From positions 1 through 64,000 of the IMG/VR virus record IMGVR_UViG_3300026512_000010: a stretch of 64,000 nucleotides of DNA, one strand, 5' to 3'. The first letter of the stretch is position 1; each line of letters opens with the position of its first letter. The DNA comes from a virus. The translations under genes were made by a program, and so were the position numbers. Shown in pieces: positions 4,193 to 28,463 of this stretch. Under the pieces are notes generated by a model that made no database searches, was not told the origin of the DNA, and worked only from the letters and a program-made list of their open reading frames with translations.

Positions 4193-5086
4193 TTATTTTT
4201 TAGAAGGAATTTGAAGAAGAGTATTAGAATTATTCATCATAGAATATGGCATATAAACAACGTTTGGATTTCCTTTTAGATTATCCATCATTTTTTCATA
4301 AATTTCCATTTTTCTCCATTCAATTAGTTTAGGAGATATTGATTTTGCAAGTAATATGTTGGCATCATGTTGACGGCGAATTTTCTGCATTTCAATATTA
4401 TACTGTGCCTTTGCTATTGTTTCTTGAGCTTTAATTTTTTTAAGTTTAATTATATTCTCAGCTTCTATTTTCTTAATTTCAAGTTCTTTTTGTTTAGCTA
4501 AAAGAATAGCATCATTATATGTTTTTGGAAAATTAAATCTTCCTGGATTAAACTGAACAACTTCCAATGGAGTTGATTTGAAATCCTCTTGAATTTTATT
4601 AAAAATCTCCCCAGCAATTTTTTTATAATTTAATCTTACCTCATCTAATGTATATTGACTTAATACCTCTCTAACATCTCTTATGACAATGGCTTTGCCA
4701 TATGTTCCATAGATTTTATAAAGAGAAATAGAATTATTTTTATCAGGCTTAATATCATTAAATAAAGCATTTAAAATTTTAGGGTTATTTTTAACCCTTA
4801 CAACTACTCTTACGTAATCAGCTTTTAAATCCATATTATCTTTCATTCTAACAGTGACGGTTTCTTGAAACTGTCCTGTAGTTGTATCTAAAAGATAAAT
4901 ATTATTATAGCATCTTTCAAATGCATTACAAGTAGTATACCATCCTGGCTGAAGTATTTCTGGTTTAAATCCTGATTTTGTCATCATCTTTCCAACAGTC
5001 CCTGATGAAACTTTCTCTTTATGGGTGCAGCCACTAAACATAAAAATGCTTAAAAATATCATCATCCCTAAAATTATTCTTTTCAT
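4193..5086 (-). CDS. SPFH/band-7 (prohibitin/HflK-C-like) domain lipoprotein
   Basis: Signal peptide plus lipobox (LSIFMFSGC); long Ala/Lys/Glu-rich coiled segment QKELEIKKIEAENIIKLKKIKAQETIAKAQYNIEMQKIRRQ typical of band-7 proteins. Confidence 0.5.
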   Translation of the reverse strand: MKRIILGMMIFLSIFMFSGCTHKEKVSSGTVGKMMTKSGFKPEILQPGWYTTCNAFERCYNNIYLLDTTTGQFQETVTVRMKDNMDLKADYVRVVVRVKNNPKILNALFNDIKPDKNNSISLYKIYGTYGKAIVIRDVREVLSQYTLDEVRLNYKKIAGEIFNKIQEDFKSTPLEVVQFNPGRFNFPKTYNDAILLAKQKELEIKKIEAENIIKLKKIKAQETIAKAQYNIEMQKIRRQHDANILLAKSISPKLIEWRKMEIYEKMMDNLKGNPNVVYMPYSMMNNSNTLLQIPSKK

Positions 5087-7200: not shown

Positions 7201-7431
7201 TTATAAATAATTTACATAAATATTTGGAATCTCATCAAGTTTTTCTACAATTTTTAATGGAACTTGATTGATTTCAGCCACCCTTTCAGGTGTATTAAAT
7301 TTTAATTCTGATTTCATCTTTTTAATCCAATTTATTACACTTAATGTATAATCACCCTCCTTATTTTTAATTTTAGCCAACTTACAGTAAATCTTTTGTA
7401 TCTCTTTAACCATTCGTGGATTTATTTTCAT
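7201..7431 (-). CDS. Hypothetical protein
   Basis: ORF in operon. Confidence 0.35.
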   Translation of the reverse strand: MKINPRMVKEIQKIYCKLAKIKNKEGDYTLSVINWIKKMKSELKFNTPERVAEINQVPLKIVEKLDEIPNIYVNYL

Positions 7432-7940
7432 TTTATTTCCTTAATTTGTCTCACATTAATACCACATTCTCTTAGAAAATCAATACCATCTAAATTTTTA
7501 TATTTCTCTTTATAAAATACTCTTTTTATACCCGATTGAGCTATTAATTTTGAACAGTCTGGACAAGGACTTAATGTAACATATAAATCACAGCCATCTG
7601 TAGAAATTCCAGCCTTTGCAGCAAAAGCTATTGCATTCATCTCTGCATGAACAGTGAATGGTGATGTAACCAACACTTTTTTAAGTTTTGGATGTATTTT
7701 TCCACAAGTATTACAATAAAAATTTACATCATCGCATTTTCCTACATCTTTTGAGTTACAATATGGACAAACTTCTATTTCATCTTCACAAACATTTTTA
7801 TGTCCTGAAACTGTCCCGTTATATCCACAGGAAATAATCCTATTATCCTTAACGAGAACTGCCCCCACCTGTCTTCTTTTGCAATAAGATAAGTTTGCAG
7901 TTTCTTGAGCTACATTCATAAAATAATATTCTTTTATCAT
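7428..7940 (-). CDS. cd: dCMP deaminase (T4 Cd-like) with inserted Cys4 zinc-ribbon
   Basis: HAEMNAI...LSPCPDCSKLI zinc-binding deaminase motifs. Start moved to the MIKEYYF Met (ATG 7938-7940), which has GGAG 6 nt upstream and removes the 47-nt overlap with the upstream ORF. Confidence 0.8.
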   Translation of the reverse strand: MIKEYYFMNVAQETANLSYCKRRQVGAVLVKDNRIISCGYNGTVSGHKNVCEDEIEVCPYCNSKDVGKCDDVNFYCNTCGKIHPKLKKVLVTSPFTVHAEMNAIAFAAKAGISTDGCDLYVTLSPCPDCSKLIAQSGIKRVFYKEKYKNLDGIDFLRECGINVRQIKEIK

Positions 7941-7941
7941 T

Positions 7942-8169
7942 TTAAACTCCATATCTATTTGCAAATTTAGCAAGTTTTTTAAGAGCACTTTGTTCTAATG
8001 CTCTTATACCTTGTTTTGTTATCCCCATAAGATATCCTATCTCTTCAAGTGTATATTCTCTACTTTCTAAAACACCAGCATCAATTAGTTCATTTAATGC
8101 ATGCCATTTATCTTTTCTGTTTTCAAATTCATCCAAGATAATTTTCGCTTCTTTTAATGTCATTGTCAT
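7942..8169 (-). CDS. Small sigma-70 region 4.2-like HTH protein (75 aa)
   Basis: YTLEEIGYLMGITKQGIRALEQSALKKL parallels E. coli sigma70 [28 protein letters not shown]; preceded by a consensus promoter plus upstream element. Confidence 0.55.
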   Translation of the reverse strand: MTMTLKEAKIILDEFENRKDKWHALNELIDAGVLESREYTLEEIGYLMGITKQGIRALEQSALKKLAKFANRYGV

Positions 8170-8192
8170 TTTAACTCCTTAACTTTTCTTTT

Positions 8193-8227
8193 AAGTAATT
8201 ATAATATAATTTTTTGTAAAAGTAAAG
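8193..8227 (-). promoter_or_regulatory. Conserved phage promoter cassette with upstream aaatttaagctaaatttaag element
   Basis: aagtaattataatataattttttgtaaaagtaaag then ggtttaagctaaatttaagg. Confidence 0.5.
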
Positions 8228-8247
8228 GGTTTAAGCTAAATTTAAGG

Positions 8248-8976
8248 TTAAAAATCCCAATCTGATAATTTTGTTCCCTGGAATTTCTTAAAATGCTTAT
8301 TATTTTTAGAATATTCTAAAAACTCTTCAGCAAGTTCATTTAATTCTAAAAATTTTAAATAATCATACCCCAAAGAAGTAATATCCGCATTAAAAGGAAG
8401 TTTCTTTGCATATCCTTCAAATTCTTCAAGTTCTCTTTTTATTTTATCATAAAATCCTAAAATTGCTCCTTCTTTTTCAAAAGCAGTTGTTCCCTTAGGA
8501 GGCTTACCACTTCTTTCAACAATTCTATCGATATATTTGTCAAAATTTTCTTTCCCATAATAATATATTTGATAGAAAAATTTTTTACATCCATTTGAAG
8601 ACATATGTTTAGGACGGACTCTAAATGTATCCATATTTGAATACCCTTCCCCTATTACATTTTTAATTTTAAGATGTTTTATATAATCTACTGTTGGCTC
8701 TGTCCCTCCAAATTTACTCCATAATGAGTCAAAACTTGCCCATGATACATATCCTGCTTTTTTATTATTTGTATATTTTCCTAAAAACAATAAATCTAAA
8801 TCTTTGAAATAAATTCCTAAGTCAAAAATTTTATCGTTATATGTGGTTTTATACACTTCAGAACGATATTTAGTTTCTAAAAATTTTATTAATTGATTCA
8901 TTCTTGTCCCTTTACCGGAACCAGAGGATCCCAATACTAATCCAAAAGTTTCCACTACCACTCCTTTAGAGAACAA
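8248..8976 (-). CDS. P-loop kinase-like protein (paralog of the C-domain of 11796..13415); candidate nucleotide/DNA-base kinase
   Basis: Walker A VLGSSGSGKGTRMNQLIKFLETKY resembles VLGSNATGKSTRITRLIEYLDKEY in the 539-aa protein. Confidence 0.45.
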   Translation of the reverse strand: MFSKGVVVETFGLVLGSSGSGKGTRMNQLIKFLETKYRSEVYKTTYNDKIFDLGIYFKDLDLLFLGKYTNNKKAGYVSWASFDSLWSKFGGTEPTVDYIKHLKIKNVIGEGYSNMDTFRVRPKHMSSNGCKKFFYQIYYYGKENFDKYIDRIVERSGKPPKGTTAFEKEGAILGFYDKIKRELEEFEGYAKKLPFNADITSLGYDYLKFLELNELAEEFLEYSKNNKHFKKFQGTKLSDWDF

Positions 8977-10094
8977 GCATTAATTTTAGAATAGTCATAT
9001 TTTGCACGAGGGCGTCCCATTTCTTTTTTAGCTTTTGTATATTTGCTTAATTCACAAAAGCTATTTTCAAGCATCATAACATTGAGACACCTATCGTATT
9101 CAGGAAGATGGTCAAAAAGTTTATTCAAATCCGTTTCCCATCCTCTTTTCTTCCATTCTTTTTCTATATAATCTCTTACCCAAAATATACACTCTTCATA
9201 TGTCATTCCATCTTTATCTTTAAACATATAATCAATACCCCCTTGACAACCTGGCCCAGCAACAGTAAATTCATTTTCACTAAATTTGAATTCTTCTATA
9301 TAAGTAAAATCTACAAAAACCTGATAAGCAAGAAATTCACTAAATCCGGGTATTAGAAGCAGTTTTTCATATGCGTCTTTTTGAGAAGAAGCTTCATTAA
9401 CAAGATTAGCAATATTTAAATCATCTCTTGCAAATTTGACAAGCCACAGCATTCTTACAACCATATTTGGCTCAAACTCTGAAATTTTTTCGGAGTCTTT
9501 AATCTTATCAAATGCTTCTCTTACAGTCATTTCTTTTCCATTGTGTTTAACTAAATTTTTAACAGTCTTACCATCCTTATATTCATATATTTTTGGAAAT
9601 CTCCAAGTATGTTTTATGCCACCCATGTTAAATGCTGAAGTATACCAAACATATTTAGGATTAGCTTTGGAAAACTCTTCAACTACATTTCTAATTTTGT
9701 CTATATCTTTTTCATTAAAAGTTAAAATATTAAACTCTTCAGGAAAATTTAAAATTCTAAATGTCTCTGATTTGTTCCAAGCTCTAAATAAAATACTCCA
9801 AAGGATTTTTTCTTCAAAAGAAAGATTTTCGTTTTTGCTAATGTTTCTTATAAGCCACTTGCTTTCTCTATCAAGTTCTCTTCTAACATTTGTGAATTTA
9901 TATTTTTGAAAAATTTCATCTTCCGTCCAAGATGGCGGAAGTTTTTCTATTTCTTTTTTCTTATATATTTTGTGCCTTTCAAAAATATAATTGTGATGAT
10001 ATTTTAAAATATCTTCATTAAAAGTAGGACTTGCTTTTTTTATAACCTCTTTTCTAACTCCACAATATGGGACATCAGCTGGTTTTGTTTTCAT
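8955..10094 (-). CDS. Hypothetical 379-aa protein (modification-cluster member)
   Basis: Large ORF between the P-loop kinase and the dNMP kinase; no motif recognised. Confidence 0.4.
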   Translation of the reverse strand: MKTKPADVPYCGVRKEVIKKASPTFNEDILKYHHNYIFERHKIYKKKEIEKLPPSWTEDEIFQKYKFTNVRRELDRESKWLIRNISKNENLSFEEKILWSILFRAWNKSETFRILNFPEEFNILTFNEKDIDKIRNVVEEFSKANPKYVWYTSAFNMGGIKHTWRFPKIYEYKDGKTVKNLVKHNGKEMTVREAFDKIKDSEKISEFEPNMVVRMLWLVKFARDDLNIANLVNEASSQKDAYEKLLLIPGFSEFLAYQVFVDFTYIEEFKFSENEFTVAGPGCQGGIDYMFKDKDGMTYEECIFWVRDYIEKEWKKRGWETDLNKLFDHLPEYDRCLNVMMLENSFCELSKYTKAKKEMGRPRAKYDYSKINACSLKEW

Positions 10095-10656
10095 CTAAAA
10101 TTCCCTTTATAAACTTTCTTATTTTTTCCTTTCCAGAAAAATCATTATGAAATATATAATCAACATCAAAGGTATCTATCGTATCTTCAAAGGAATGTTT
10201 TTTATGAATAGATTTATCAGAAATAATTTTTATAATTTTAAATCCATTGTTTTTAACATATTCATATTCAATAGGCGTTCTTAAATCAGAAATAAAAATT
10301 TCTTTTTTATTAGGAAGGGAACCAAATTCAAATTCTTTTTGAATTTCTTTTTGATATTTTTCTATTTCATCATTTAACATTCTAACAAAAATTCCATCTT
10401 CTATATCTCTTAAAAAATTTAATTTTAACCAGACTTCTCTTGGAACAATTTCTATTTTTTCTCCTATAGAAGTTTCATAAGTAAATTTTTGTTCTTTTTC
10501 TTCAGGTAAATAATCTTTTTTCATCCATGGATAAATGCAGTTAGCAAGTTTTTTAAGCTGGTCACTAAAAGAGAAACGCTTATAATTGAACTCTTTTAGA
10601 ACTTCTCCAAAATAATCTTTACCGCTTCCTGCTCTACCAGTTAATGCTATTTTCAT
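10075..10656 (-). CDS. Deoxynucleoside monophosphate kinase (T4 gp1-like)
   Basis: MKIALTGRAGSGKDYFGEVLKEF parallels T4 gp1 MKLIFLSGVKRSGKDTTADFIMSNY. Confidence 0.7.
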   Translation of the reverse strand: MKIALTGRAGSGKDYFGEVLKEFNYKRFSFSDQLKKLANCIYPWMKKDYLPEEKEQKFTYETSIGEKIEIVPREVWLKLNFLRDIEDGIFVRMLNDEIEKYQKEIQKEFEFGSLPNKKEIFISDLRTPIEYEYVKNNGFKIIKIISDKSIHKKHSFEDTIDTFDVDYIFHNDFSGKEKIRKFIKGILDENKTS

Positions 10657-10658
10657 AT

Positions 10659-11756
10659 TTATACCTTAATTTGAAATTTTCTAAATGGTGAATATTCAAT
10701 ACTCCATTTAACTTCTTCTGGAAGCATACTAATGTCAATCATAATATCTTCAGCAATTTCGCCTTTTTTAAGCCCTCTATTTTTAGTAATAATAAATGCA
10801 GTCACAAGTTCAATATATTTTTGAAGTAATATATCTTTTACATCCCAGTTTTCAATTAAAAAATCATTAATCTCCTGTCCTGCTTTATAATCTGTTTCTT
10901 TATTGACAATTAGTTTACTTTGCATTCTAACGATATTATCATGAAAATCTCTAAATTCTTGAGAACTTTTTACAGGAAATATAATACTGTGTCTATTTTC
11001 CAAATTTAATTTTTGTTTATCTCTATTTTTTAAAACATCATAACCCTGTTGTCCTGTAAAATCATAAAGGTGCATATTAGTGCAAAAATGTGTATATTCA
11101 CCTAATTTTACTTCTGAATCAATATTCTCCCTAAGCCAATGTGTAACAAATTCTTGTAAATAAGTGAATTCGAAAATATTAATAGAACCAAGCCCCCAAA
11201 TTATATCTCCACTTCTACTAAACATATTAAGATTTAATCTTTTTTCATTGTCCACAAAAATATTTATAAGTTGGTTGCAAGGTTGATCTTTTGTGCTTTC
11301 TAAGTGATACACATACTCTAAGCTCATGTCAGTATCTAAATCAGGATTACCAATATATAAATTTGCTCTTCTTGTAAATAAACTATCTTTTTTAAATTTG
11401 TTTAACATACTTTCCATCTGGCCAAATCTATAAAATCTTTCGCCATATCCTCCTCTCCATGTTTCCCCATCATCAGAAAAATCTCTTGCACGAGGAAGAA
11501 AATGAATGAGATACGGATCTATTAATATAGAACCACTCATTACCCAAAAGGTTTCAGCTATCATAGCAAATATATTATTTTTTCTACCCTCTAATGCTAA
11601 GTGTCTTGCTCTTGGATTTTTCTGAGAAAGAACAGCATTATAAATGACATTTATATTGCCATTTCTTGATGGTGTTCTTGCCCCCTTATTAATCAAATTA
11701 TCAATTGCATTAAATACTACTTCATTTATTGTTTCACCTTTTATTTCATGAATCAT
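10659..11756 (-). CDS. Thymidylate synthase-family pyrimidine hydroxymethylase (365 aa; dUMP or dCMP hydroxymethylase-like)
   Basis: ThyA-family core DQPCNQLINIFVDNEKRLNLNMFSRSGDIIWGLGSINIFEFTYLQEFV (catalytic Cys, RS.D..LG.P.NI); about 100 aa longer than ThyA or T4 gp42. Confidence 0.65.
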   Translation of the reverse strand: MIHEIKGETINEVVFNAIDNLINKGARTPSRNGNINVIYNAVLSQKNPRARHLALEGRKNNIFAMIAETFWVMSGSILIDPYLIHFLPRARDFSDDGETWRGGYGERFYRFGQMESMLNKFKKDSLFTRRANLYIGNPDLDTDMSLEYVYHLESTKDQPCNQLINIFVDNEKRLNLNMFSRSGDIIWGLGSINIFEFTYLQEFVTHWLRENIDSEVKLGEYTHFCTNMHLYDFTGQQGYDVLKNRDKQKLNLENRHSIIFPVKSSQEFRDFHDNIVRMQSKLIVNKETDYKAGQEINDFLIENWDVKDILLQKYIELVTAFIITKNRGLKKGEIAEDIMIDISMLPEEVKWSIEYSPFRKFQIKV

Positions 11757-11795
11757 CTGAACTCCTATTTTTATTATAATTATAACTTATTTTTA

Positions 11796-13415
11796 TTACA
11801 AAGTAAATTGCCATTCTGACAAAATATCTACTGTTTTGTTGTTATCTTCTTTCTTTTCCACACAATCACCAAATAAAAAATTTACAAAAAAATCTTCTCT
11901 CTCAAACGGCGAAACATCATATAACTCTGTTTCTGTTTCTCCATTACATTTCATCAATTTCAATTCTTCAAGATGTTTTCTCTGCCCTAAATTATCTCTC
12001 CATCCTTGTGACTTTTCAGCCCAGTCAAGTCTCCTATTTTTCCCTGTTCTTCCATTTGTTCTCAAAAGATAGTGCTCTATATCATCATATAGAAAAAATA
12101 CTTCTATCGCTTTATCAACATTAATGTTTCTCTTTTTTAATGCTTCATATGTAAATACTTTGCCTCTATTATTGAAAAAACCTTCTTGTATAAAATAATT
12201 TATGTCATAATTTTTAAACATATGTTTTATAAAATTAAATCTACTTTCCTGTGTTGTAAAATCAGAAGTATCTAAACTTATCCACTTTTTAGAAGTATTA
12301 AATCGTCCTAAAATAAACATTTTTCCTAAAGAAGTATTATAAATTCGTCCAATTTCTACTTCTTTTTTAGCTTTCATAGAATAGTATATCACAAATGTAG
12401 GATCACCATATTCTTTGTCCAGATATTCTATTAATCGAGTTATTCTTGTTGATTTGCCTGTTGCATTAGAACCTAAAACATTTATAAATGTATGATTAAC
12501 TTCTTTTTCTACTTCTGGCTCTATAAGTTTTCTATTTTTAAATTTACCCAAAGATGTAGATCTATTTTTGTTTTTTTCTTTACTTTCATACCAGGCTTCT
12601 ATTTGTCCCTTATCATAAATAGTCTGAGGAAGTAAATAATTTGACGAATCAAACCATTCTCTAAATGGTCTAGGATTATCCTTTAAAGCTTCTAAAATGA
12701 TGTCTCTCACAAGTCTTAAAGCATCCCTTACTTCATTTATTTTATTTGTTGATCTAATGAATCTAAATTCTATAGTTCCTACATCAATTAAACTCATGGG
12801 ATTTATAAATGGCCTAGCTATTAAAGATAGTTTTTTGCCATCTTTATTTATTTTTAGTGTATCTTTTAATTCCTGAAAATTTTTAGCTCTATTTATATTT
12901 TCAATGAAAATTTCAGAAATTCTTCTTCCACCATCATTTCTCAAATAATTTTTGGCCTTTTTATAAGTCTTTTCATCAAGATTTAATTTTTTGAGTTCAT
13001 TTTCATCAAAGGGATAACAGGCTTCAATTATATCTCTATGATTTTCATTAACATAATTAATTATCCTTTTAATTATTTCTATATCTTTATCCCATTCAGC
13101 AATTCTTGTATGTATGTGAAAATGAGACATACAAGATACGCCAAAATCATATTTATAATGGCAGAATATTTTTTCAACAAGTTTTACTGTATCACATATT
13201 CCATATTTAGGAGCTGTGTTAATTTCAGCACCAACAGGAGGATTAATTCCTGCAGGATCAACAGGAACATTTTTATATGGCTCTTTTGTATTTACAATAT
13301 CAAACTCAGAATGTTCAAATTCCCCCAAATATGATGGAAGTGTTCTTTCAATATCAGGCAATTCTAATTCCAATCCAAAACTTATATCACTATCACAAAT
13401 GTCCCATTTATTCAT
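11796..13415 (-). CDS. Two-domain protein: unknown N-domain plus C-terminal P-loop kinase-like domain
   Basis: C-terminal LGSNATGKSTRITRLIEYL Walker A, paralogous to 8248..8976; N-domain of about 300 aa unassigned. Confidence 0.45.
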   Translation of the reverse strand: MNKWDICDSDISFGLELELPDIERTLPSYLGEFEHSEFDIVNTKEPYKNVPVDPAGINPPVGAEINTAPKYGICDTVKLVEKIFCHYKYDFGVSCMSHFHIHTRIAEWDKDIEIIKRIINYVNENHRDIIEACYPFDENELKKLNLDEKTYKKAKNYLRNDGGRRISEIFIENINRAKNFQELKDTLKINKDGKKLSLIARPFINPMSLIDVGTIEFRFIRSTNKINEVRDALRLVRDIILEALKDNPRPFREWFDSSNYLLPQTIYDKGQIEAWYESKEKNKNRSTSLGKFKNRKLIEPEVEKEVNHTFINVLGSNATGKSTRITRLIEYLDKEYGDPTFVIYYSMKAKKEVEIGRIYNTSLGKMFILGRFNTSKKWISLDTSDFTTQESRFNFIKHMFKNYDINYFIQEGFFNNRGKVFTYEALKKRNINVDKAIEVFFLYDDIEHYLLRTNGRTGKNRRLDWAEKSQGWRDNLGQRKHLEELKLMKCNGETETELYDVSPFEREDFFVNFLFGDCVEKKEDNNKTVDILSEWQFTL

Positions 13416-13879
13416 TATATCTCCTTATAGCATCCGCCACGCTTAGCTTGCATTTTCTTTTTTATAAAGTCATCAATTTCATCTTTATCTCCATCTTTTT
13501 TAAAAATGGCCAAATAGGTTCCTGACTTTTGTTGACATCTAAATTTTATACCAAGTTTTTCATAAAACTTTCTTGCAGTTTTTTCAGAAGAGATTCTAAT
13601 ATAGGGTGTATCAACATTTTGTAAAAAATGTTTTACTAATTTTTCTCCTATATGTTTTCCTCTGTATCTTTCATCAACAAATAATAAATCAAGAGTTGTC
13701 TGTTTTTTATCTTTTGTGGCCTTCTTTGCATAAAACCCTAAAATGTCACCATCTTTATATACAAAGAATTCATCAGGAGGTCTTGCATTTATTTTTGAAT
13801 AAAAAGTTCCAGCATACTTTTGACCATCACAGTTTTTCAAAAAATTCTGAATTTCTTCCTTTGAAACTTGTATTATCAT
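13415..13879 (-). CDS. GNAT-family N-acetyltransferase
   Basis: ERYRGKHIGEKLVKHF (motif A R-x-x-G-x-G/A) and C-terminal FYEKLGIKF. Confidence 0.55.
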   Translation of the reverse strand: MIIQVSKEEIQNFLKNCDGQKYAGTFYSKINARPPDEFFVYKDGDILGFYAKKATKDKKQTTLDLLFVDERYRGKHIGEKLVKHFLQNVDTPYIRISSEKTARKFYEKLGIKFRCQQKSGTYLAIFKKDGDKDEIDDFIKKKMQAKRGGCYKEI

Positions 13880-13892
13880 ATAATTCCTTTAA

Positions 13893-13923
13893 TAATTATA
13901 ATATGTTTTACAACAAAAGTAAA
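13893..13923 (-). promoter_or_regulatory. Conserved phage promoter cassette (variant)
   Basis: taattataatatgttttacaacaaaagtaaa. Confidence 0.4.
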
Positions 13924-14922
13924 TTAAATCTTTTCTATCTTTTCTTCATATGTAAGTTTAAATTTACTTTTATCAATACCAATTCTAAAATATTCTTTTG
14001 GAGTAGTTTCCCTGATGCCATCCCATAATAAACTCCAATCCACACCATTCCATTCAGGATGTTTTGAAACATTTTCTATGTCCTCGGCAAGTCTGTGAAT
14101 ATAATATCCAACGTATCTACTATCTCTTTCTCTAAAAGTCTTTTTATATGCACAGGCTACTGTTTCAATAGTAAAATTATCCACAGGAATATTTTCTTCT
14201 TGAAGTTTTTCAAAAATTTCTTTTTTAGTTACATCTTCAAGCCATATTTTTTCATCTTTTGTAAAATTATGAACAATTTTCTTTCTTTTTCCGTTTTCAA
14301 TTATTCTTTCTTTTTTGGACCACTCATCCTTTCCAAACGCAAAACAAAGCCCATGTGTATGACTTTCTGCATTCTTTTCTCCAAGAAATAAGGTAGTTGG
14401 CTCTATATTATATACTGCTACCTGTTTTAAAGCTTGTGCCCAGTTCCATACAGAAAACCTTCCAAAATGTTTTATAGGTTTATAGATAGTGTTCCAAAGT
14501 TTATTAAAATTCTCTTCAGGTGAACTATTTAATAAGTCATCAAAATATTCACTCTGAGATTTGCCATTTAGCATATTTTTATAACTCTCTACTGTCTCAA
14601 CAAAAAATTTTCTCTGTTTTAATTTATCTGTCTGAAAGGGAATTTTATACTGAGCCCATTCCCACCATTTTTGAAGTCTTTTTATTCCAGCTATTTCAAG
14701 ATCTGGATATTCATTTATAATAAGATACGCTGAGGGTAAATGATATGTTACAGAAGTTAAAAAGCAGAACCACAGTATCTGCTCTTTATTTAGTTCAAGT
14801 CTATCAACAATATAATTGCTTATTGTAATAAAAGGGTCAATATCATTAGCATATAACATCCTCTTATAATAATGAATAAAATCATCAACTCTACCATTCA
14901 TATTCTTCCTCTTCTGGAACAA
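13924..14922 (-). CDS. Hypothetical 332-aa protein (modification-cluster member)
   Basis: ORF; likely true start at the MNGRVDDF Met, giving a short overlap with the amidotransferase gene. Confidence 0.4.
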   Translation of the reverse strand: MFQKRKNMNGRVDDFIHYYKRMLYANDIDPFITISNYIVDRLELNKEQILWFCFLTSVTYHLPSAYLIINEYPDLEIAGIKRLQKWWEWAQYKIPFQTDKLKQRKFFVETVESYKNMLNGKSQSEYFDDLLNSSPEENFNKLWNTIYKPIKHFGRFSVWNWAQALKQVAVYNIEPTTLFLGEKNAESHTHGLCFAFGKDEWSKKERIIENGKRKKIVHNFTKDEKIWLEDVTKKEIFEKLQEENIPVDNFTIETVACAYKKTFRERDSRYVGYYIHRLAEDIENVSKHPEWNGVDWSLLWDGIRETTPKEYFRIGIDKSKFKLTYEEKIEKI

Positions 14923-15577
14923 AGTCCATTGTTCTATCTATTTTTTCTAAATCGTCAGGAATTACCTTTTCTATATTTTCTATTAAATTTAATTCTTTAT
15001 CTGCTCTTAAAAGAATATTTTTAGTGCTTGCTATGATATAGCCATTTTTCAATGTGGCTTTCCATTGTGGTCTTAAACCATTTCTAAAATTTATTAATTT
15101 ACCATTTGGTGCCAAAAACACAGCAGACGCAGAACATCCTGGAAATTTTTGCAAGTATGATTTGTCTCTTGTATTCTTAAACCAGTGAAACAATAGTTCT
15201 GTATCATTTTTAGTTTCGCATAATATATTATAAGAAGTTTCCCAAAGTTCAGGTGGCTCTTGAGAAATAACACCATTATGAACAATAAATCCTTCTTTTT
15301 CATTTCCAATAGGCTGAGGATAGTGAATGTCAGATGTAGAATATCTTATGTGAAAAATGGCTCTTATTGAATTATTATATATTATTTCCGATAAATCAAA
15401 TTTTTTAAGAAAAGTTCTTGGAGGAATATTTTCTTTATAAGCATTTAATTTTCCATTATAAAATGCAACTCCAGTAGCATGACGCCCTCTAATTTCCGAC
15501 TCTTCAATAACTCTTTTTATGAGTTCCAGCTCCTTAAAAGAAATAACATCTAATTTTACTCCTACAACAGCACACAT
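14891..15577 (-). CDS. Stand-alone class-II (Ntn) glutamine amidotransferase domain protein
   Basis: Starts MCAVVGV (Cys2 nucleophile); ...RGRHATGVAF...HIRYSTS...PQP...VHNGVI pattern of GATase type 2; no fused synthase domain. Confidence 0.7.
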   Translation of the reverse strand: MCAVVGVKLDVISFKELELIKRVIEESEIRGRHATGVAFYNGKLNAYKENIPPRTFLKKFDLSEIIYNNSIRAIFHIRYSTSDIHYPQPIGNEKEGFIVHNGVISQEPPELWETSYNILCETKNDTELLFHWFKNTRDKSYLQKFPGCSASAVFLAPNGKLINFRNGLRPQWKATLKNGYIIASTKNILLRADKELNLIENIEKVIPDDLEKIDRTMDFVPEEEEYEW

Positions 15578-16092
15578 TTATTCACCTCTATGCTTTTATA
15601 AATTTCTTCCCAACTTAATCCAAAAAAATTGTTTATAATTGTTGGGTAATAAAATCCATATACTTTTCTTCTATCTTTATTCTTTTCATAAAATTCATCT
15701 ATAATCTCCAATTTATCATCAATTAAAATGTCAACATCCACAAGCCACTTTGAATCAGTCGCTATAAAATGAGCATAAGGAAAAAATCTTTTTATAAACT
15801 TCTTTTTTGAGTCATAGTGCTTCCCAAACACAGATGATATAAAAGCAATTTCATGATTTTCGCTTAATTTTTCAATAAACTCTTTAGCATCTTTGTATGG
15901 CTCAACATCATCATATAAATCTTCCTTTTCCCAGAATTCAAAAGGATTTTCGTGCTCAGAAAGATATTTTTTAACATTATATCCAATACCAGCAGGAAGT
16001 TCTACTTTATGTCCTGTTTCCTGTTCATACCATTCTAACCATTTTTCTAAAGTTGGAGCCACCGTTAAATCTACATCAATTCCTATCCTCAT
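15562..16092 (-). CDS. HAD-superfamily 5'(3')-deoxyribonucleotidase-like phosphatase (dNMPase candidate)
   Basis: MRIGIDVDLTVA (DxDxT/V motif I) at the internal Met. Start trimmed to ATG 16090-16092 to clear the upstream stop. Confidence 0.5.
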   Translation of the reverse strand: MRIGIDVDLTVAPTLEKWLEWYEQETGHKVELPAGIGYNVKKYLSEHENPFEFWEKEDLYDDVEPYKDAKEFIEKLSENHEIAFISSVFGKHYDSKKKFIKRFFPYAHFIATDSKWLVDVDILIDDKLEIIDEFYEKNKDRRKVYGFYYPTIINNFFGLSWEEIYKSIEVNKCVLL

Positions 16093-16102
16093 AATAAAGC
16101 CT

Positions 16103-16660
16103 TTACACGTTAAGCTGACGGTTGTCTTCGTTTCCTTTTTCATCTACTTTCTTATATTTTCCTTCTTTATAACCACCCTCTACTCTTTTATGATTCAATG
16201 CATTTTTCTTGAAATACCCATTCCATATTCTATCCTGATCAACACCTAATTCATAGCACATAGAAAGCATAAGTTCTTGAAAATAATCTGGTATAGATGC
16301 AAGTATAAATTTTGCAAGTGCCAATGTTTCATCAATAATAGAATCATTTATTTCATAATTTTCATCAAATAACTCTACAAGCTCATCTATTGAATTTTGC
16401 ATTAAAAGCAATGATAATGCAAAATGTAAAACATCAATTATTTCAATGACAGCATTTTGTTCATCAAGTTCTGATTTTTTCCACCAAGCCCAATTTGGTT
16501 CAACGCTTTGAAGCAATTCGCCATATTCGCATAAAGCAGCTTTTCTAAATTTCTTTTCTGGTATTTTTTCAGCCCAGTCTTCTCCTGAGTATTTTTTATT
16601 AAGTTCTAACTGTGCTTCAAGCAATTTTCTAAAATCTTGTTTTGAAAGTGTATTCTTCAT
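16103..16660 (-). CDS. All-alpha NTP pyrophosphohydrolase (dimeric dUTPase / T4 gp56 dCTPase-like)
   Basis: ELNKKYSGEDWAEKIPE...LCEYGELL...WWKK...EIIDVLHFALSLL resembles the dimeric dUTPase/MazG-like family. Confidence 0.5.
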   Translation of the reverse strand: MKNTLSKQDFRKLLEAQLELNKKYSGEDWAEKIPEKKFRKAALCEYGELLQSVEPNWAWWKKSELDEQNAVIEIIDVLHFALSLLLMQNSIDELVELFDENYEINDSIIDETLALAKFILASIPDYFQELMLSMCYELGVDQDRIWNGYFKKNALNHKRVEGGYKEGKYKKVDEKGNEDNRQLNV

Positions 16661-16667
16661 TTCTTCT

Positions 16668-16698
16668 TCCTTTTTTTATAATTATAATATGTTTTTAA
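16668..16698 (-). promoter_or_regulatory. Conserved phage promoter cassette (variant)
   Basis: ataattataatatgtttttaataaaagtaaa. Confidence 0.4.
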
Positions 16699-16720
16699 TA
16701 AAAGTAAACTAATTTCTAAA

Positions 16721-17195: not shown

Positions 17196-18221
17196 TTATA
17201 TAATTTTAGTATATTCATAATTAATTTTCATAAATCCTTCAGTATATAAAGGAAGCTCAAATCTTTTGGCAAAATCAATTAAAACATTTTCTGGAATAAA
17301 TTTTCCATCAATTTTAGCTCTTTCTTTGTTTCTTTTTAAAATTTCATCTAAAGAAGTCATCATAACAATGGCTATTGCATTATGATTTTTAAGTTGAGAT
17401 AGCCATTTCTTTCTTGATTTCCAGCTAACATTTGTCATATCAATTACAAAATCTTTGTCTGAATTTTTAAGTCTATTAAATTTTTGTTGAAGAATTTTAT
17501 CAACTTCTTTTTGATCTTCAAAGGTTAAATTTTTCCAAATTTCAGAATATGTTTCACCATATCCTTTTTCTTTTCCGTATTCCAAAAGAATACCATCTCT
17601 ACTTAGAACTTCCAAATCTTTAAAATTTTCTTTTATATATGTTGATTTCCCAGAATTTGGAAGCCCTATCATAATATAACAATTATTATCTAATTCTGTG
17701 TTGCAAATTTTATTATGTCCATATTTTTCTTTTTCTTTATGAGTAAATCCTTTAAAAGAAATATTACCTTTAGCATCATATTCTGAGAATTCATAAAGCT
17801 TTTCATATAAATCATAATGTCCATTAATGAAATATTTTTTAATTTGTTTATCTGATTTTTGCCAGAATATCCCATGGTAGTTAATCACATAAAAAATTTC
17901 AAACGCATCAGACCAAGAAATAACATTTTCATATACTAAATTCATTAAAAAATCGATAGCCATTAAAGTAGAAATTCCTTCATGACCTCTAAATACAATT
18001 TTTCCATTTTCAAGCTCTTGTCTTGCGAGAGGTTTTCCAATATCATGAAGAAGTGCAGCAATTTGAATATTTTTTGAAGCATTGTTTAATCTTGCTTGAT
18101 TAAACACAAGCATAGTATGAGTCCAAACATCCCCTTCAAGATGATACGTTCCGTTTGGATGAGTAGCAAATTTTAATCCTTTTTCATAATTTTCTTTAAA
18201 AAGTTTAAATATTTTTTCCAT
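17196..18221 (-). CDS. Bifunctional HD-domain phosphohydrolase / polynucleotide 5'-kinase (RNA end-healing enzyme)
   Basis: N-terminal HD motifs (HLEGDVWTHTM, AALLHDIGKP, RGHEGIS); C-terminal P-loop MIGLPNSGKSTYIKE resembles the T4 Pnk kinase GCPGSGKST; sits next to Rnl1. Confidence 0.7.
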   Translation of the reverse strand: MEKIFKLFKENYEKGLKFATHPNGTYHLEGDVWTHTMLVFNQARLNNASKNIQIAALLHDIGKPLARQELENGKIVFRGHEGISTLMAIDFLMNLVYENVISWSDAFEIFYVINYHGIFWQKSDKQIKKYFINGHYDLYEKLYEFSEYDAKGNISFKGFTHKEKEKYGHNKICNTELDNNCYIMIGLPNSGKSTYIKENFKDLEVLSRDGILLEYGKEKGYGETYSEIWKNLTFEDQKEVDKILQQKFNRLKNSDKDFVIDMTNVSWKSRKKWLSQLKNHNAIAIVMMTSLDEILKRNKERAKIDGKFIPENVLIDFAKRFELPLYTEGFMKINYEYTKII

Positions 18222-18338: not shown

Positions 18339-18387
18339 TATAATATAATTATAATATAATTATAATATAATTTTTTGAAAAAGTAAA
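18339..18387 (-). promoter_or_regulatory. Conserved phage promoter with triple tandem 11-bp -10 repeat (tataatataat x3)
   Basis: Three perfect copies at 18339-18371 followed by tttttgaaaaagtaaa. Confidence 0.5.
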
Positions 18388-19283: not shown

Positions 19284-20405
19284 TTATAGATTTTTTAAAA
19301 ATTCTCTTGCTTTTGACAATTTAAAAGTATCTTTTATAATTTTTTCTTTTAATAGTTTCTCTAAATCCTCTTTTTTATTTGCTTTCATTAAAACACTAAA
19401 ATAAGGATGCTCTTTATGTTTTAAAGCAAACTCTTTTCTTTCTGTTTGAAATTTTACTTTTAATAATTCATTCAATTCATTATACATTTTATCAAAATAG
19501 TGAGAAACTTTATTCCTTATTTCCTCAATTTTATTTCTTTTTTCTCCCTGCGGTAATTGTGATATTACATCATCTATTGTTTCATTTATAATATGTTCTA
19601 TTAATTTATTTTCAACCAAATTATCAGGACTAATTAAATGATGAAGTGTAAAATACCATTTAGTTTTCACCTTTCTAAATTGTCTTTCAAAATTTTCGAA
19701 TGGATTCATTACCACCCACCCTTCAATATCTGTAAATGTTTCTTGTCTTTCTCTTAATTCAGTTAAAGTTAAATATTCAACCTGTGTAATTGGTAGATCA
19801 TACACAAATGCTATATTTTTCACTTTATCATATTCTAAATATTCACCTGTAATAATTCTTCTTGCTTGAATTAATTTTAATTCTGTTTTTTCATATGGAA
19901 CAACAATTTGATTAAATGGGGATATTAATTCAAAAAATAAAAGTATTCCTTCTTTATAACAATTTCTAATTGCGTTTTGGTATTTTTCATTTTTATTAAT
20001 TATTTCTTGTGCCAATTTTGCTTGCTCAGAAAAAAATGTTCCTTTTGTTTTAGCAAGGAAGATTTCATTACCTTTTAGGTTTTCAATATAAATGGTTTGA
20101 ATTAAACTCCCATCTAATTTTTCTCTTGCTTCAAGTCTAGCATTTTCCCATTTTTCATCATTCATTGTAAATGGATTTTCATTATCATTAAAGAATTTGT
20201 GTAATCCTAAATAATAATCTTTTGTTTCTAAATTAATTGTTAAACCTCTTAATTCTAATGCAAAAGAATCTTTAGCAAAATCAGAATAAGAAGCCAACCT
20301 ATAATTAAAAATTCTAAATGGTGTTCCATCTACTACTTCATCTTTATAATAGAAAGCATCATTTTCTTTAACTATGTTCATTGCTCTTTCAAATAAATGA
20401 TTCAT
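19284..20405 (-). CDS. rnlA: RNA ligase 1 (T4 Rnl1/RnlA-like)
   Basis: [26 protein letters not shown] and NENPFTMN match T4 Rnl1 ([35 protein letters not shown] identical); KxDG motif [10 protein letters not shown]. Confidence 0.85.
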   Translation of the reverse strand: [373 protein letters not shown]

Positions 20406-22518: not shown

Positions 22519-23274
22519 TCATGTTTTTCTTTTTGTTATTTTATTCCATCTACAATTACTGCCTATTTCACCATTACTAAAAAGATATATAACATTCAGA
22601 TTTGGATTTGTTTTATTATAATCCCAAAACCAAATATAAGGAAATTTTTTAAGTGCCAAAGCATTATTTTTTAATGTTTCAACATACATAGGATATTTAT
22701 TTTCTACTTCATAAAATTCTATGCTTTCATCTATTAGAATAAAATATTGCAAAAATTTATAAAACCATTTTTTATTTTGTGTTTCATAAACTTCTGGGCG
22801 TATAGTTACTTCAAAATCAAACAATTCTGGTAATTCGTTTTTCCATTTATCAATAACCCAAAAATTATTTGACGTCATCACAAATGACAACCTTACTTTG
22901 TTTTTATAATTATATAATTTATCAATAGTTTCTTTATCTATATTTTCATCAATACTAAAAACAAATTTATCATATCCACTTTTAAAAGCTTTTTCTAATA
23001 CTTTTATATTTCTTGTATGCAATGTGATTTTAATATTTGGATTAAATTGTTTTGCGAGTTTTGATATTTCCCAAGTTTCTTTTATAAATGAAGGATCTGA
23101 AGTATCACCACTTATTGAAAGTAAATTTGTCATATCTGCAAAACATTCAATAAAAGCTTTCCATTTTGTTGAAAAATGTGGGTTTTTATTTTCTCTAATT
23201 TTATTCCCAACACAAAAATCACATTTAAAAGGACAATCCCCACCCGCAAGTATTGAAATATAATCAAATTTCAT
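22519..23274 (-). CDS. Radical SAM protein (Cx3Cx2C)
   Basis: GGDCPFKCDFCVGN cluster 12 residues from the N-terminus; NrdG is encoded separately at 30529..31020. Confidence 0.65.
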   Translation of the reverse strand: MKFDYISILAGGDCPFKCDFCVGNKIRENKNPHFSTKWKAFIECFADMTNLLSISGDTSDPSFIKETWEISKLAKQFNPNIKITLHTRNIKVLEKAFKSGYDKFVFSIDENIDKETIDKLYNYKNKVRLSFVMTSNNFWVIDKWKNELPELFDFEVTIRPEVYETQNKKWFYKFLQYFILIDESIEFYEVENKYPMYVETLKNNALALKKFPYIWFWDYNKTNPNLNVIYLFSNGEIGSNCRWNKITKRKT

Positions 23275-24101: not shown

Positions 24102-24863
24102 TTAACTCCTATATTTAGATACAATTAAATCATATGTTACATAATCTTTTAGTGGCATAATAATATTTCTACTCCTAATGACTTCTCTCATATCCTCACC
24201 AACATAAATAGGAACTTGTTCTTTTTTAATATAAACACCAAATTTAAAAAAGTCTGAAATATCATTCCAATCTTTATTATATTTTTCTTTCACGTATTCG
24301 ATTTGCTCATTTGCTGTTTTAAACATAAGTTCTTTATGAGAAGCATATGCTCTTGCAAACATACTTTTACTATTTCTAATAGCATCTCTTTTTCTTTCTG
24401 CAATTACATCCACTAATTTTTCATCAGGAACAGAAAAAACTCGTGCATCAAACCAAGCACCATCAATTGGCTTCATAAAACTTTGACCAAATTGTAATGT
24501 AGCTAAACTTGCACTCAAAGAAGCAAGTTTCTGAACCCTTCCATTATAAGGGTGAGTATATCCTTTTTTATCTGGCTGAGCTGGAATTATAATTGTGATT
24601 TCATCACTTTGTGTATAACCAAACGTTGCTTGAAATTCATCGAAAATTTTTTCCATCGCTTTTACCATAGCAAATGAAAAATCATGATCGAAAGGTTTTT
24701 TGCAATATTTTTTCGACAATTTACTAAATTTGTGGCCATCAACTCTGATTACAATATGTTGATCTTTTGGAATATTGATTTCATATTGCTTTTCATATTG
24801 TTTAATTTTGTAAAGATGTTCTTTGTTCATGATTTGACCTTTTTCTATTTTGCATAAACACAA
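24102..24863 (-). CDS. Thg1-like protein (tRNA-His guanylyltransferase family, 3'-5' nucleotide polymerase)
   Basis: IVIRVDGHKFSKL, KKPFDHDF and FGYTQSDEITIIIP match the Thg1 signatures VVVRLDGRNFHRF, KPND and YGQSDEYSFVF. Confidence 0.75.
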   Translation of the reverse strand: MCLCKIEKGQIMNKEHLYKIKQYEKQYEINIPKDQHIVIRVDGHKFSKLSKKYCKKPFDHDFSFAMVKAMEKIFDEFQATFGYTQSDEITIIIPAQPDKKGYTHPYNGRVQKLASLSASLATLQFGQSFMKPIDGAWFDARVFSVPDEKLVDVIAERKRDAIRNSKSMFARAYASHKELMFKTANEQIEYVKEKYNKDWNDISDFFKFGVYIKKEQVPIYVGEDMREVIRSRNIIMPLKDYVTYDLIVSKYRS

Positions 24864-27598: not shown

Positions 27599-27638
27599 CT
27601 TATAAGTAATTATAATATATTTTTTGAAAAAAGTAAAG
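27599..27638 (-). promoter_or_regulatory. Conserved phage promoter cassette
   Basis: cttataagtaattataatatattttttgaaaaaagtaaag. Confidence 0.5.
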
Positions 27639-27748: not shown

Positions 27749-27833
27749 TGGCGGAGGGTGCAGGACTCGAACCTGCAAGTCTTTTCAGACCACGGATTAG
27801 CAATCCGCTCCCTTACCATTCGGACAACCCTCC
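27749..27833 (-). tRNA. tRNA-Ser (GCT), CCA encoded, long variable arm
   Basis: Reverse complement GGAGGGTTGTCCGAATGGTAAGGGAGCGGATTGCTAATCCGTGG...GGTTCGAGTCCTGCACCCTCCGCCA; anticodon loop TTGCTAA. Confidence 0.8.
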
Positions 27834-28006
27834 AAATTTAGAACACTATCCCGGGATAGTGTTCTGGGATATTTCACTTAAAATAATGAAGTGGCCAATT
27901 TCATTTATTTTTTAGTTACTATACCTCAGTGTCTATTTTGCTTCGCCAAACGACACCACCAAAAGCTCTTTAAATTTTTCTTAAAAAACTTAGAGAGTTT
28001 TTGTTT

Positions 28007-28093
28007 TGGTGCACAAGGTGGGACTCGAACCCACACGTCCTTGCAGACACTGAATTTTAAGTCCAGAGCGTCTACCAGTTCCGCCACTCGTGC
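28007..28093 (-). tRNA. tRNA-Leu (TAA)
   Basis: GCACGAGTGGCGGAACTGGTAGACGCTCTGGACTTAAAATTCAG...GGTTCGAGTCCCACCTTGTGCACCA; long variable arm. Confidence 0.8.
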
Positions 28094-28155
28094 AATGATC
28101 TACAGATAATCCTATAGAAGATACCTCTTTCTACACAATGGTAGATGAGCAATTT

Positions 28156-28230
28156 TGGCAAGGGATGATGGGATCGAACCACCAACATCGGTTTTGGAGA
28201 CCGACATTTTACCAATTAAACTAATCCCCT
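28156..28230 (-). tRNA. tRNA-Trp (CCA)
   Basis: anticodon loop CTCCAAA; T-arm GGTTCGATCC; 3' CCA. Confidence 0.75.
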
Positions 28231-28232
28231 AT

Positions 28233-28308
28233 GGTGATCAGGGTGGGGATCGAACCCACGACCACATGATTAAAAGTCATGTGCTCTACCGACTGAGCTA
28301 CCTGATCA
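28233..28308 (-). tRNA. tRNA-Lys (TTT)
   Basis: TGATCAGGTAGCTCAGTCGGTAGAGCACATGACTTTTAATCATG...GGGTTCGATCCCCACCCTGATCACCA. Confidence 0.8.
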
Positions 28309-28310
28309 TT

Positions 28311-28384
28311 TGGTTGCGGGGGCAGGACTCGAACCTGCGACCTTCGGGGTATGAGCCCGACAAACTACCACTGTTCCACCCCGC
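28311..28384 (-). tRNA. tRNA-Met (CAT)
   Basis: GCGGGGTGGAACAGTGGTAGTTTGTCGGGCTCATACCCCGAAG...GGTTCGAGTCCTGCCCCCGCAACCA. Confidence 0.75.
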
Positions 28385-28388
28385 ATTT

Positions 28389-28462
28389 TGGTATCCCCAA
28401 CGGGATTCGAACCCGTGTCAACTGATCGAAAATCAGTTATCCTAACCTCTAGACGATGGGGA
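28389..28462 (-). tRNA. tRNA-Glu (TTC)
   Basis: GTCCCCATCGTCTAGAGGTTAGGATAACTGATTTTCGATCAGT...GGGTTCGAATCCCGTTGGGGATACCA. Confidence 0.8.
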
Positions 28463-28463
28463 C

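Follow-up and report, generated by a model that had tools for sequence, protein, structure and literature searches.

The window analysed here, the whole 64,000-nucleotide stretch from positions 1 to 64,000 of the IMG/VR virus record IMGVR_UViG_3300026512_000010 (G+C ∼25%), carries between 7428 and 16660 a run of 12 tightly packed, often overlapping open reading frames (ORFs), all on the minus strand, that very probably constitutes a thymidine hypermodification cluster. An original prediction, made from the sequence alone, had named five enzymes of nucleotide metabolism in this region, and all five are present where it placed them, as minus-strand ORFs with Pfam or PHROG matches. Its list omits six genes that are interleaved with the five: two HMUD2 kinases (one of them fused to an amidoligase), an amino acid:DNA transferase (AADT), an aGPT-Pplase clade 1 protein (Pplase1), a class II GATase and a GNAT acetyltransferase. 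Since these overlooked genes lie within the same span, the interpretation of the cluster changes. The same gene set is syntenic in four independent contigs (L002, L092, L037 and L050), so the clustering is not a matter of chance. When the 9.2-kb region was compared by megablast with 50,697 phage records, no match was returned, which points to a phage that has no close cultured relative.

The ORF at 10659–11756 encodes a ThyA-superfamily protein of 365 residues, with a partial match to PF00303 (8e-9) and the catalytic Cys in the sequence DQPCNQ. It was aligned with the dUMP hydroxymethylase of Acinetobacter phage SH-Ab 15599 (hereafter 15599), SPO1 gp29, T4 gp42 and E. coli ThyA, and the catalytic Cys is invariant across these enzymes. 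In length it is close to SPO1 gp29 (383 residues) and the 15599 enzyme (375 residues), as compared with 264 residues for E. coli ThyA and 246 for T4 gp42; the alignment and the lengths together bear out the earlier description of a ThyA-family enzyme of SPO1-type size that retains the catalytic Cys. Its best matches in cultured phages are full-length proteins from the Ackermannviridae and related phages, at ∼36% identity, and the 15599 enzyme matches it from end to end (7e-69, 35–36% identity). The gene for the latter was co-expressed in an E. coli reconstitution and helped to yield alpha-dapT DNA (PMC13458397). Identity in the alignment is 28% with SPO1 gp29, 18% with T4 gp42 and 19% with E. 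coli ThyA, and a C-terminal extension of ∼100 residues aligns only with the dUMP hydroxymethylases.

The residue at the base-specificity position, Asn177 in E. coli ThyA, is the Asn of the sequence GSINIFEF, as in E. coli ThyA itself, SPO1 gp29 and the 15599 enzyme; T4 gp42 has Asp at this cytosine/uracil specificity position, and the MilA alignment likewise places Asp there. The hydroxymethylase MilA is the best match in the PDB (4.7e-10), ahead of any thymidylate synthase, and the scores against three NCBIfam ThyA equivalog models (27.6–39.5 bits) are far below their cut-offs (174.55 and 327). By its identities, its Asn and its C-terminal extension, the protein groups with the dUMP hydroxymethylases and away from ThyA and T4 dCMP hydroxymethylase, which gives the clade placement that the original prediction had proposed to establish by profile search. 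We conclude that the 365-residue protein is, as judged from these comparisons, a dUMP hydroxymethylase. Identity as a T4-type dCMP hydroxymethylase was rejected on the presence of Asn, not Asp, at the cytosine-recognition position and on the 18% identity to T4 gp42, and identity as a canonical thymidylate synthase on the NCBIfam scores and the 19% identity to E. coli ThyA. No other ORF of at least 180 residues in the window matches either the ThyA or the ThyX Pfam family, in agreement with the earlier remark that neither canonical enzyme is visible there.

Four further enzymes would act on the nucleotide pool. The dCMP deaminase (7428–7988; 170 residues from the ATG at 7940) matches PF00383 at 2.2e-25 and has the zinc motifs HAE and PCxxC, as HAEMNA and PCPDC; an insertion at residues ∼65–100 contains two CxxC pairs (CPYC...CNTC) and resembles an extra zinc ribbon. 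The deoxynucleoside monophosphate (dNMP) kinase (10075–10656, 193 residues) matches phrog_139 (2.6e-31) and PF21448, DNMK (1.6e-6), has the P-loop GRAGSGKD, and is expected from these matches to convert 5-hydroxymethyl-dUMP (5-hmdUMP) to 5-hmdUDP. A 5'-deoxynucleotidase of the NT5C/HAD type (15562–16143, 176–193 residues; PF06941, 6.4e-12) is a candidate dTMPase, and is 29% identical to the putative deoxyribonucleotidase MAM_013 of phage phiMAM1, whose gene lies two genes upstream of the AADT-like gene MAM_010. Finally, the ORF at 16103–16660 encodes a 185-residue pyrophosphatase of the dimeric, all-alpha dUTPase family (PF08761 dUTPase_2, 5e-20, 72.9 bits against a cut-off of 22.9; phrog_173, 1.4e-27). 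Over 84 residues it shares 38% identity with the C-terminal domain of gp18 of SH-Ab 15599, a demonstrated bifunctional dTTPase/dUTPase (PMC13458397), and it is therefore a candidate dUTPase/dTTPase that would remove dTTP and recycle dUTP to dUMP.

Two proteins of the cluster have an HMUD2 domain. Kinase 1 (8248–8955, 235 residues) matches PF18747 at 9e-30, with 104 bits against a cut-off of 25, has the Walker A motif GSSGSGKGT and is ∼32% identical, by tblastn, to the gp243-type kinases of the Ackermannviridae, including CBA120 orf243. Kinase 2 is the C-terminal domain (11796–12515) of a 539-residue fusion protein encoded at 11796–13415; it matches the same family at 7e-8 over residues 310–481, with 32 bits against the Pfam cut-off of 25, and has the Walker A motif GSNATGKST. 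The two kinases are paralogues, 34% identical and with both Walker A motifs intact, and the counterpart of kinase 2 in the related contig L002 is a separate gene (phmmer, 4e-71). The class of 5-hydroxymethyl-dU (5-hmdU) DNA kinases, or 5-HMUDK, phosphorylates 5-hmdU in DNA to give 5-phosphomethyl-dU (5-PmdU), as shown for ViI gp67, gp243, M6 gp54 and others (PMC8989533), and we assign both HMUD2 proteins, from their profile matches, as 5-hmdU DNA kinases.

The AADT, of the aGPT-Pplase2 type, is encoded at 13924–14922 (325–332 residues) and matches PF18724, ADDT, at 2e-17 (64 bits; cut-off 26); a search of the PDB with its sequence gave no match. Its Glu246 and Thr247 align with the metal ligands Glu222 and Thr223 of 15599 Pplase2 (alignment A4) and are invariant in 10 sequences that include the latter; Cys250, invariant in the same 10 sequences, aligns with Cys226. 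Mutation of the conserved catalytic Cys abolishes activity in the AADT/Pplase2 family (PMC13458397); this Cys carries no number in that text, and the numbering as Cys226 is our count on the 15599 sequence. The pairwise alignment of the two proteins is near noise, and the shared Glu-Thr-x-x-Cys motif is exposed only by the multiple alignment. Ala251, Arg262 and Tyr267 of the AADT fall, in this distant alignment, at the positions of Gly227, Asp238 and Asp243 of the 15599 enzyme, in which Asp238 and Asp243 are acidic pocket residues that bind the diamine (PMC13458397). Arg, Lys and Tyr residues are conserved in the AADT pocket, and because the Asp238/Asp243 pair of the diamine pocket is replaced by Arg262/Tyr267 there is weak evidence that the donor may be carboxylate-bearing, i.e. 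an amino acid, rather than a diamine.

Pplase1 (8955–10094, 379 residues; Pfam HMUDK_hel) matches PF18723 at 7.7e-65, with 219 bits, over profile positions 3–276 of 281. Over 97% of its length it is 38–42% identical to an Ackermannviridae protein that is annotated, in the one record of Yersinia phage CAU_YEP3, as aGPT-Pplase clade 1, and its Cys347 and Glu348 are invariant in an alignment with its relatives (A5). We place it, on these similarities, in the same class as ViI gp160. The M6 counterpart, gp55, is dispensable for the first transfer step in vitro, and the function of the clade is reported as unknown (PMC8989533, PMC5889632).

The remaining members of the cluster form a tailoring trio. 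The N-terminal domain of the 539-residue fusion protein (12516–13415) appears to be a glutamine-synthetase-fold carboxylate-amine ligase, a divergent Amidoligase_2. A word-indexed search with this domain found one relative, P0002, a stand-alone 323-residue version from a related phage at 50% identity; an exhaustive phmmer search found 180, and 40 of the 61 that were aligned match PF12224 (Amidoligase_2). Glu16, Glu18, Glu64, His102, Arg201, Glu216 and Arg218 are invariant in the 61-sequence alignment, and His100 is nearly so. The ExE, H, R and ExR elements are the metal- and phosphate-binding pattern of the glutamine synthetase fold, and because the invariant residues reproduce it, we conclude that the domain is, by sequence and model, an ATP-dependent carboxylate-amine ligase. 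An AlphaFold model computed with the 61-sequence alignment has, at high confidence, the glutamine synthetase / glutamate-cysteine ligase fold; the model from the single sequence was useless (pLDDT 40), and the fold appeared only when the alignment was supplied. No match was found for the amidoligase profile among PDB sequences or for the fusion protein among PHROGs, and tblastn of the domain against cultured phages gave a single weak match, in phage Simon. With one such match and no PHROG, the module is essentially absent from isolates.

Natural fusions of the amidoligase are varied. They comprise amidoligase-HMUD2 kinase (P0003, with the arrangement seen in the window), GNAT-amidoligase-HMUD2, amidoligase-GNAT-HMUD1 kinase, amidoligase-GNAT, GATase-amidoligase and TET-associated glycosyltransferase-amidoligase proteins. 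The last type is represented by P0066 and P0102, one of which is additionally fused to a low-molecular-weight phosphatase domain; their domain composition hints that the amidoligase may also be used in glycosylating hypermodification pathways.

The class II (Ntn) GATase domain protein (14891–15577, 228 residues, N-terminus MCAVVG) has matches to GATase_6 and GATase_7, the former marginal (28.3 bits against a cut-off of 27), and its nearest NCBIfam models are AsnB and PurF. Met1, Cys2, Arg78, Asn101, Gly102 and Asp125 are at least 95% conserved among 77 homologues. The GNAT N-acetyltransferase (13415–13879, 154 residues) matches Acetyltransf_10, Acetyltransf_7 and Acetyltransf_1 at 3e-12 to 3e-9, scoring 47 bits against 23.6 for the first and 45 bits against 27 for the second. 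Amidoligase and glutaminotransferase domains in contigs of this kind have been described as having 'functions not yet known', awaiting discovery (PMC8989533).

A scan of IMG/VR with a 10-sequence amidoligase alignment found 407 relatives, and 80 loci were analysed; the counts that follow span related, non-independent lineages. The amidoligase co-occurs with a GNAT in 79 of the 80 loci, with a GATase in 76 and with an AADT in 68–71. It is adjacent to the GATase in 72 loci and, among labelled plus-strand ORFs, to the GNAT in 79; the GATase and AADT are adjacent in 4. A TET/JBP dioxygenase (Pfam, 3e-20) is present in 61 loci and a Ploopntkinase3-type kinase in 54. Only two of the 80, L037 and L050, carry instead of TET/JBP a ThyA-like gene together with an HMUD2 kinase and Pplase1; L002 and L092, which were found separately, follow the ThyA-type set for the genes that their contigs cover, L092 having the ThyA-like gene and the kinase fusion on a contig too short for Pplase1 to be judged. 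TET/JBP and ThyA-like genes never occur together (0 of 80 loci), and Pplase1, present in all four ThyA-type loci long enough to judge, did not turn up in any of the 61 TET-type loci. ParB-dependent T-dioxygenases have been described as 'consistently linked' with GATases, P-loop kinases and AADTs (PMC13229309); no product of the GATase-amidoligase-GNAT-AADT module was found reported in the literature that could be searched. In L002 an Acb1-family protein (PF23474, at 2107–2637) lies between the dUTPase-family and Pplase1 genes and has no counterpart at that position in the window; Acb1 is an anti-CBASS nuclease.

The intergenic gaps of the cluster contain copies of a promoter-like motif, TTTACTTTT..AAAAA..TATAAT (TTTACT-N16/17-TATAAT). 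Its 26 matches in the window are all on the coding (minus) strand and mostly intergenic, against a chance expectation of 0.26, and the distribution suggests that it is probably an early or middle promoter of the phage. Within the cluster one copy, TTTACT-N16-TATAAT at 16681–16708, lies upstream of the dUTPase-family gene, one at 13895–13923 upstream of the GNAT and amidoligase-kinase genes, one at 11779–11807 upstream of the dUMP hydroxymethylase gene and one at 8198–8226 upstream of a 75-residue ORF and the dCMP deaminase gene. These four copies (at 16708, 13923, 11807 and 8226) suggest four transcription units. Other examples among the 26, also on the minus strand, are at 1892–1919, 18359–18387, 27609–27637 and 59074–59102. 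The 75-residue ORF (7942–8169, minus strand) has a sigma-70 region 4-like helix-turn-helix, by a weak PF04545 match on the identical gene of contig L001; it sits between the kinase 1 and dCMP deaminase genes behind its own copy of the motif, and may be a regulator.

Taken together, these assignments place the cluster, as judged by homology, among the thymidine hypermodification pathways described by Lee and Weigele, and a two-stage pathway is its likely explanation and the best that we can offer. The first, pre-replicative stage would follow from homology to characterised enzymes. The dCMP deaminase would make dUMP, which the ThyA-like enzyme would hydroxymethylate to 5-hmdUMP; the dNMP kinase and then a host NDP kinase would carry this through 5-hmdUDP to 5-hmdUTP, and the dUTPase-family enzyme and the NT5C nucleotidase would meanwhile deplete dTTP, dUTP and dTMP. 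With 5-hmdUTP made and the competing nucleotides depleted, the B-family DNA polymerase of the phage would put 5-hmdU in place of T during replication.

In the second stage, on the DNA polymer, the two HMUD2 kinases would turn 5-hmdU into 5-PmdU, and the Cys and metal site of the AADT would displace the phosphate via an exocyclic methylene intermediate and join in its place the amine of a donor that bears a carboxylate and is probably an amino acid. These two steps are well supported by analogy, in that they would follow the demonstrated chemistry of their families. For the GATase, amidoligase, GNAT and Pplase1 we infer the chemistry from sequence and context. The amidoligase would use ATP to activate the appended carboxylate, presumably the one on the amino acid that the AADT has added, as an acyl-phosphate, which ammonia released from glutamine by the GATase would convert to a carboxamide. 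That the pair would be a glutamine-dependent amidotransferase follows from the conserved glutaminase residues, the almost invariable adjacency of the two genes and the existence of a GATase-amidoligase fusion. The GNAT would acetylate the remaining amine. Since both the amidoligase and the GNAT occur fused to 5-hmdU DNA kinases, they are predicted to act at the DNA and not on a free metabolite.

Pplase1 would handle undecorated 5-PmdU, for example by returning it to thymine. This role is proposed because Pplase1 accompanies the pre-replicative route, where 5-hmdU initially stands at every T position, and does not accompany the TET route. Polymer-level thymine synthesis is documented for phages SP10 and PhiW-14 (cited in PMC8989533), and the enzyme for it has long been sought.

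The specific product that this pathway implies, an amino-acid adduct with its carboxylate amidated and its amine acetylated, is a tentative proposal that we hold with much less assurance than the identity of the cluster. That this phage lineage and at least 80 IMG/VR contigs make a thymidine hypermodification not previously described, with the amidated, acetylated adduct as the candidate and the return of leftover 5-PmdU to thymine by Pplase clade 1 as a corollary, is somewhat better placed, at a little short of an even chance. If it is true, a glutamine-synthetase-fold amidoligase and a class II amidotransferase would act on a DNA-attached substrate, an enzymology not yet demonstrated.

Several points weigh against the pathway as drawn. 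Homology and gene context are its whole basis. The AADT shares only 19% identity with 15599 Pplase2, so that the case for the donor pocket leans on a distant alignment, and it is 25–28% identical to AADT-like proteins of the Ackermannviridae, which are presumably ViI-type AADTs. The amidoligase domain (residues 1–300 of the 539-residue protein) has no direct Pfam match even at E = 10, PF12224 not being reached, and it is tied to the family only transitively. Some class II GATase-like proteins are gamma-glutamyl amidohydrolases, of which EgtC is an example, and the GATase-amidoligase pair could add and remove a glutamyl handle instead of amidating. A profile–profile comparison of Pplase1 with the AADT was not significant, and the role given to Pplase1 rests on co-occurrence in few, non-independent lineages. 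No PLP (pyridoxal phosphate) decarboxylase or FAD lyase was found in the cluster, so that no characterised end product can be assumed, and the genome beyond the 64-kb contig could contain thyA, thyX or more tailoring genes.

The alternative that survives best differs in the tailoring steps. In it, the GATase feeds ammonia to the AADT to give 5-aminomethyl-dU, which the GNAT acetylates to 5-AcNmdU, the product that PaMx11 arrives at differently; as a variant of this, or on top of it, the amidoligase couples that amine to a free carboxylate, for instance the gamma-carboxyl of glutamate. We regard this as unlikely, for the GATase adjoins the amidoligase in 72 of the 80 loci and the AADT in only 4, a GATase-amidoligase fusion exists, and the conserved Arg, Lys and Tyr of the AADT pocket suggest a donor that bears a carboxylate.

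A second alternative, considerably weaker, is that of the original prediction, in which the phage is an SPO1-like hmU phage whose virion DNA has 5-hmdU in place of thymidine and is not modified further. Its pre-replicative enzyme set is complete, and this part of the prediction is supported, by the Asn of the hydroxymethylase and its 36% identity to the 15599 enzyme; the choice of 5-hmdU as the virion base is probably wrong, given the kinases, the AADT and the tailoring genes. The same transcription units also contain, interspersed, seven intact domains specific to modification after replication, and these are conserved in relatives at 50–61% identity, which makes it very improbable that the pathway stops at 5-hmdU. 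Phages with a kinase and an AADT convert 5-hmdU in the polymer to a hypermodified base or to thymine, and their virions do not contain 5-hmdU (PMC8989533; PMC5889632). On the two-stage pathway 5-hmdU is thus most likely an intermediate, and not the final virion base. The weakest alternative, that the ThyA-family protein is an ordinary thymidylate synthase or dCMP hydroxymethylase serving ordinary nucleotide metabolism or a T-even-like hydroxymethylcytosine (hmC) modification, can point to the PF00303 and PHROG matches named 'thymidylate synthase' and to the T4-like replication genes, but is hardly credible in view of the low NCBIfam scores, the Asn in place of Asp, the 18–19% identity to these enzymes as against 28–36% to dUMP hydroxymethylases, the dCMP deaminase and the dTTP- and dTMP-depleting enzymes, which oppose both forms of it, the lack of any DNA glucosyltransferase family match among the window ORFs scanned, and the 5-hmdU-specific kinases, which it leaves with no substrate.

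The closest cultured systems are those of the Ackermannviridae, Salmonella phage ViI and Acinetobacter phage SH-Ab 15599, which make 5-NeOmdU and alpha-dapT, respectively, and which, like the window, have T4-type replication genes. They share with the window the dUMP hydroxymethylase (36% identity), Pplase clade 1 (38–42%), the gp243-type 5-HMUDK (∼32%), AADT-like proteins (25–28%, and 19% for 15599 Pplase2), a dTTPase/dUTPase of dUTPase fold and an NT5C-type nucleotidase. The window cluster differs in lacking a PLP decarboxylase and in having the GATase, amidoligase and GNAT; in addition, its genes lie in one tight 9-kb cluster instead of being scattered, and it has its second kinase in one protein with the amidoligase. 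The AADT falls in a different clade, matching the metagenomic module AADTs at ∼1e-50 as compared with 1e-17 for those of the Ackermannviridae. The original prediction regarded thymidine replacement as unexpected in a T4-like backbone, a view that does not hold, since the ViI-like Ackermannviridae combine T4-type replication genes with thymidine hypermodification and many IMG/VR loci with the module adjoin T4-like PolB, UvsX, DnaB and gp46/47-type genes.

The GATase-amidoligase-GNAT-AADT module itself is shared with metagenomic ParB-dependent TET/JBP clusters (PMC13229309, PNAS 2026; Lee 2021, Fig. 2), which often have a T4-like replication neighbourhood. Amidoligase identity to these loci is 33–38%, and E-values are 1e-24 to 1e-63 for nearly all GATase and AADT matches. 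In the TET/JBP loci 5-hmU is made after replication, the kinase is of the Ploopntkinase3 type and Pplase1 is not present, whereas the window would make 5-hmdU before replication, by a ThyA-like enzyme and pool-remodelling enzymes, and has HMUD2 kinases and Pplase1. The window cluster belongs to the known class of 5-hmdU-based thymidine hypermodification systems, and it couples the making of 5-hmdU before replication to tailoring genes that mostly stand next to a TET/JBP dioxygenase (61 of 80 loci). Two testable ideas follow: that the same module attaches to either a ThyA-type (pre-replicative) or a TET/JBP-type (post-replicative) source of 5-hmU, and that Pplase1 goes only with the pre-replicative one.

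Other known systems resemble parts of the cluster. The 5-AcNmdU pathway of Pseudomonas phage PaMx11 uses a kinase, a glycine AADT, an FAD lyase and an acetyltransferase (PMC8989533); it has the kinase, AADT and acetyltransferase in common with the window, and in PaMx11 these act on DNA-borne amines (PMC8989533). Unlike PaMx11, the window has a GATase and an amidoligase, and no FAD-dependent lyase was detected in scans of its ORFs. Bacillus phage SPO1 shares the dCMP deaminase, the dUMP hydroxymethylase (gp29, 28%), the depletion of dTTP and dUTP and the hmdUMP kinase logic (PMC8989533). SPO1 stops at 5-hmdU, with no 5-HMUDK or aGPT-Pplase gene reported for it in comparison Table 3 of PMC5889632, and its candidate dUTPase/dTTPase, gp22.1, is unrelated to the dUTPase-family enzyme of the window. 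Beyond the DNA-modification systems, the window GATase shares its Ntn glutaminase residues with the AsnB-type class II amidotransferases, and the amidoligase shares an ATP-dependent core and metal- and phosphate-binding residues with the glutamine synthetase / GCS2-fold ligases YbdK, gamma-GCS and PafA. In contrast to these families, the two activities are on separate proteins in the window (fused in some relatives) and the ligase shares a polypeptide with a DNA-base kinase; a carboxylate substrate carried by a DNA base, as presumed here, is not known for any member of them.

Hypermodified thymidine protects phage DNA against restriction enzymes and other nucleases, and the pathways that make it are a source of new DNA-modifying enzymes that biotechnology can use. 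In those characterised so far, the last step is a decarboxylation, an isomerisation, a lyase cleavage or an acetylation. The window has a complete and apparently self-sufficient set in compact form, with pool enzymes, two kinases, a transferase and a tailoring trio in 9 kb, served by four promoter-like motifs.

Elsewhere in the window, a T4-type replication set (33321–36032 and 36642–50629) comprises PolB, a DnaB-like helicase, UvsX with the T4 C-terminal domain, a clamp loader, gp46/47-like SbcCD and NrdD/NrdG. The set is very divergent, and as PolB shares no more than ∼28% identity with its counterparts in cultured phages (Campylobacter phages, cyanophages and Vibrio phages), its sequence indicates a deep-branching T4-like lineage that has no cultured representative. 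Directly downstream of the cluster, at 4193–5086, is a gene for an SPFH/Band 7 family protein (9.7e-17), which is unusual in a phage replication region. A 251-residue protein encoded at 22519–23274 has a CxxxCxxC radical-SAM motif and a weak Pfam match below the cut-off, is distinct from NrdG (30529–31020) and is without a homologue among the 50,697 records of cultured phages. It may be linked to DNA or tRNA modification; as a member of the pathway it was set aside, being 6 kb from the cluster and lacking a cultured-phage homologue. An apparent RNA/tRNA repair toolkit is spread over 17196–18221, 19284–20405, 24102–24863 and 54186–55724, its parts being an HD domain-P-loop kinase fusion, a T4 Rnl1-like RNA ligase (weak match), a Thg1-like 3'-5' nucleotidyltransferase (8.9e-29) and an RNA ligase-cytidylyltransferase-like fusion. 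At 27749–30064, 19 minus-strand tRNA genes form a block that accounts for a local rise in G+C to 0.43.

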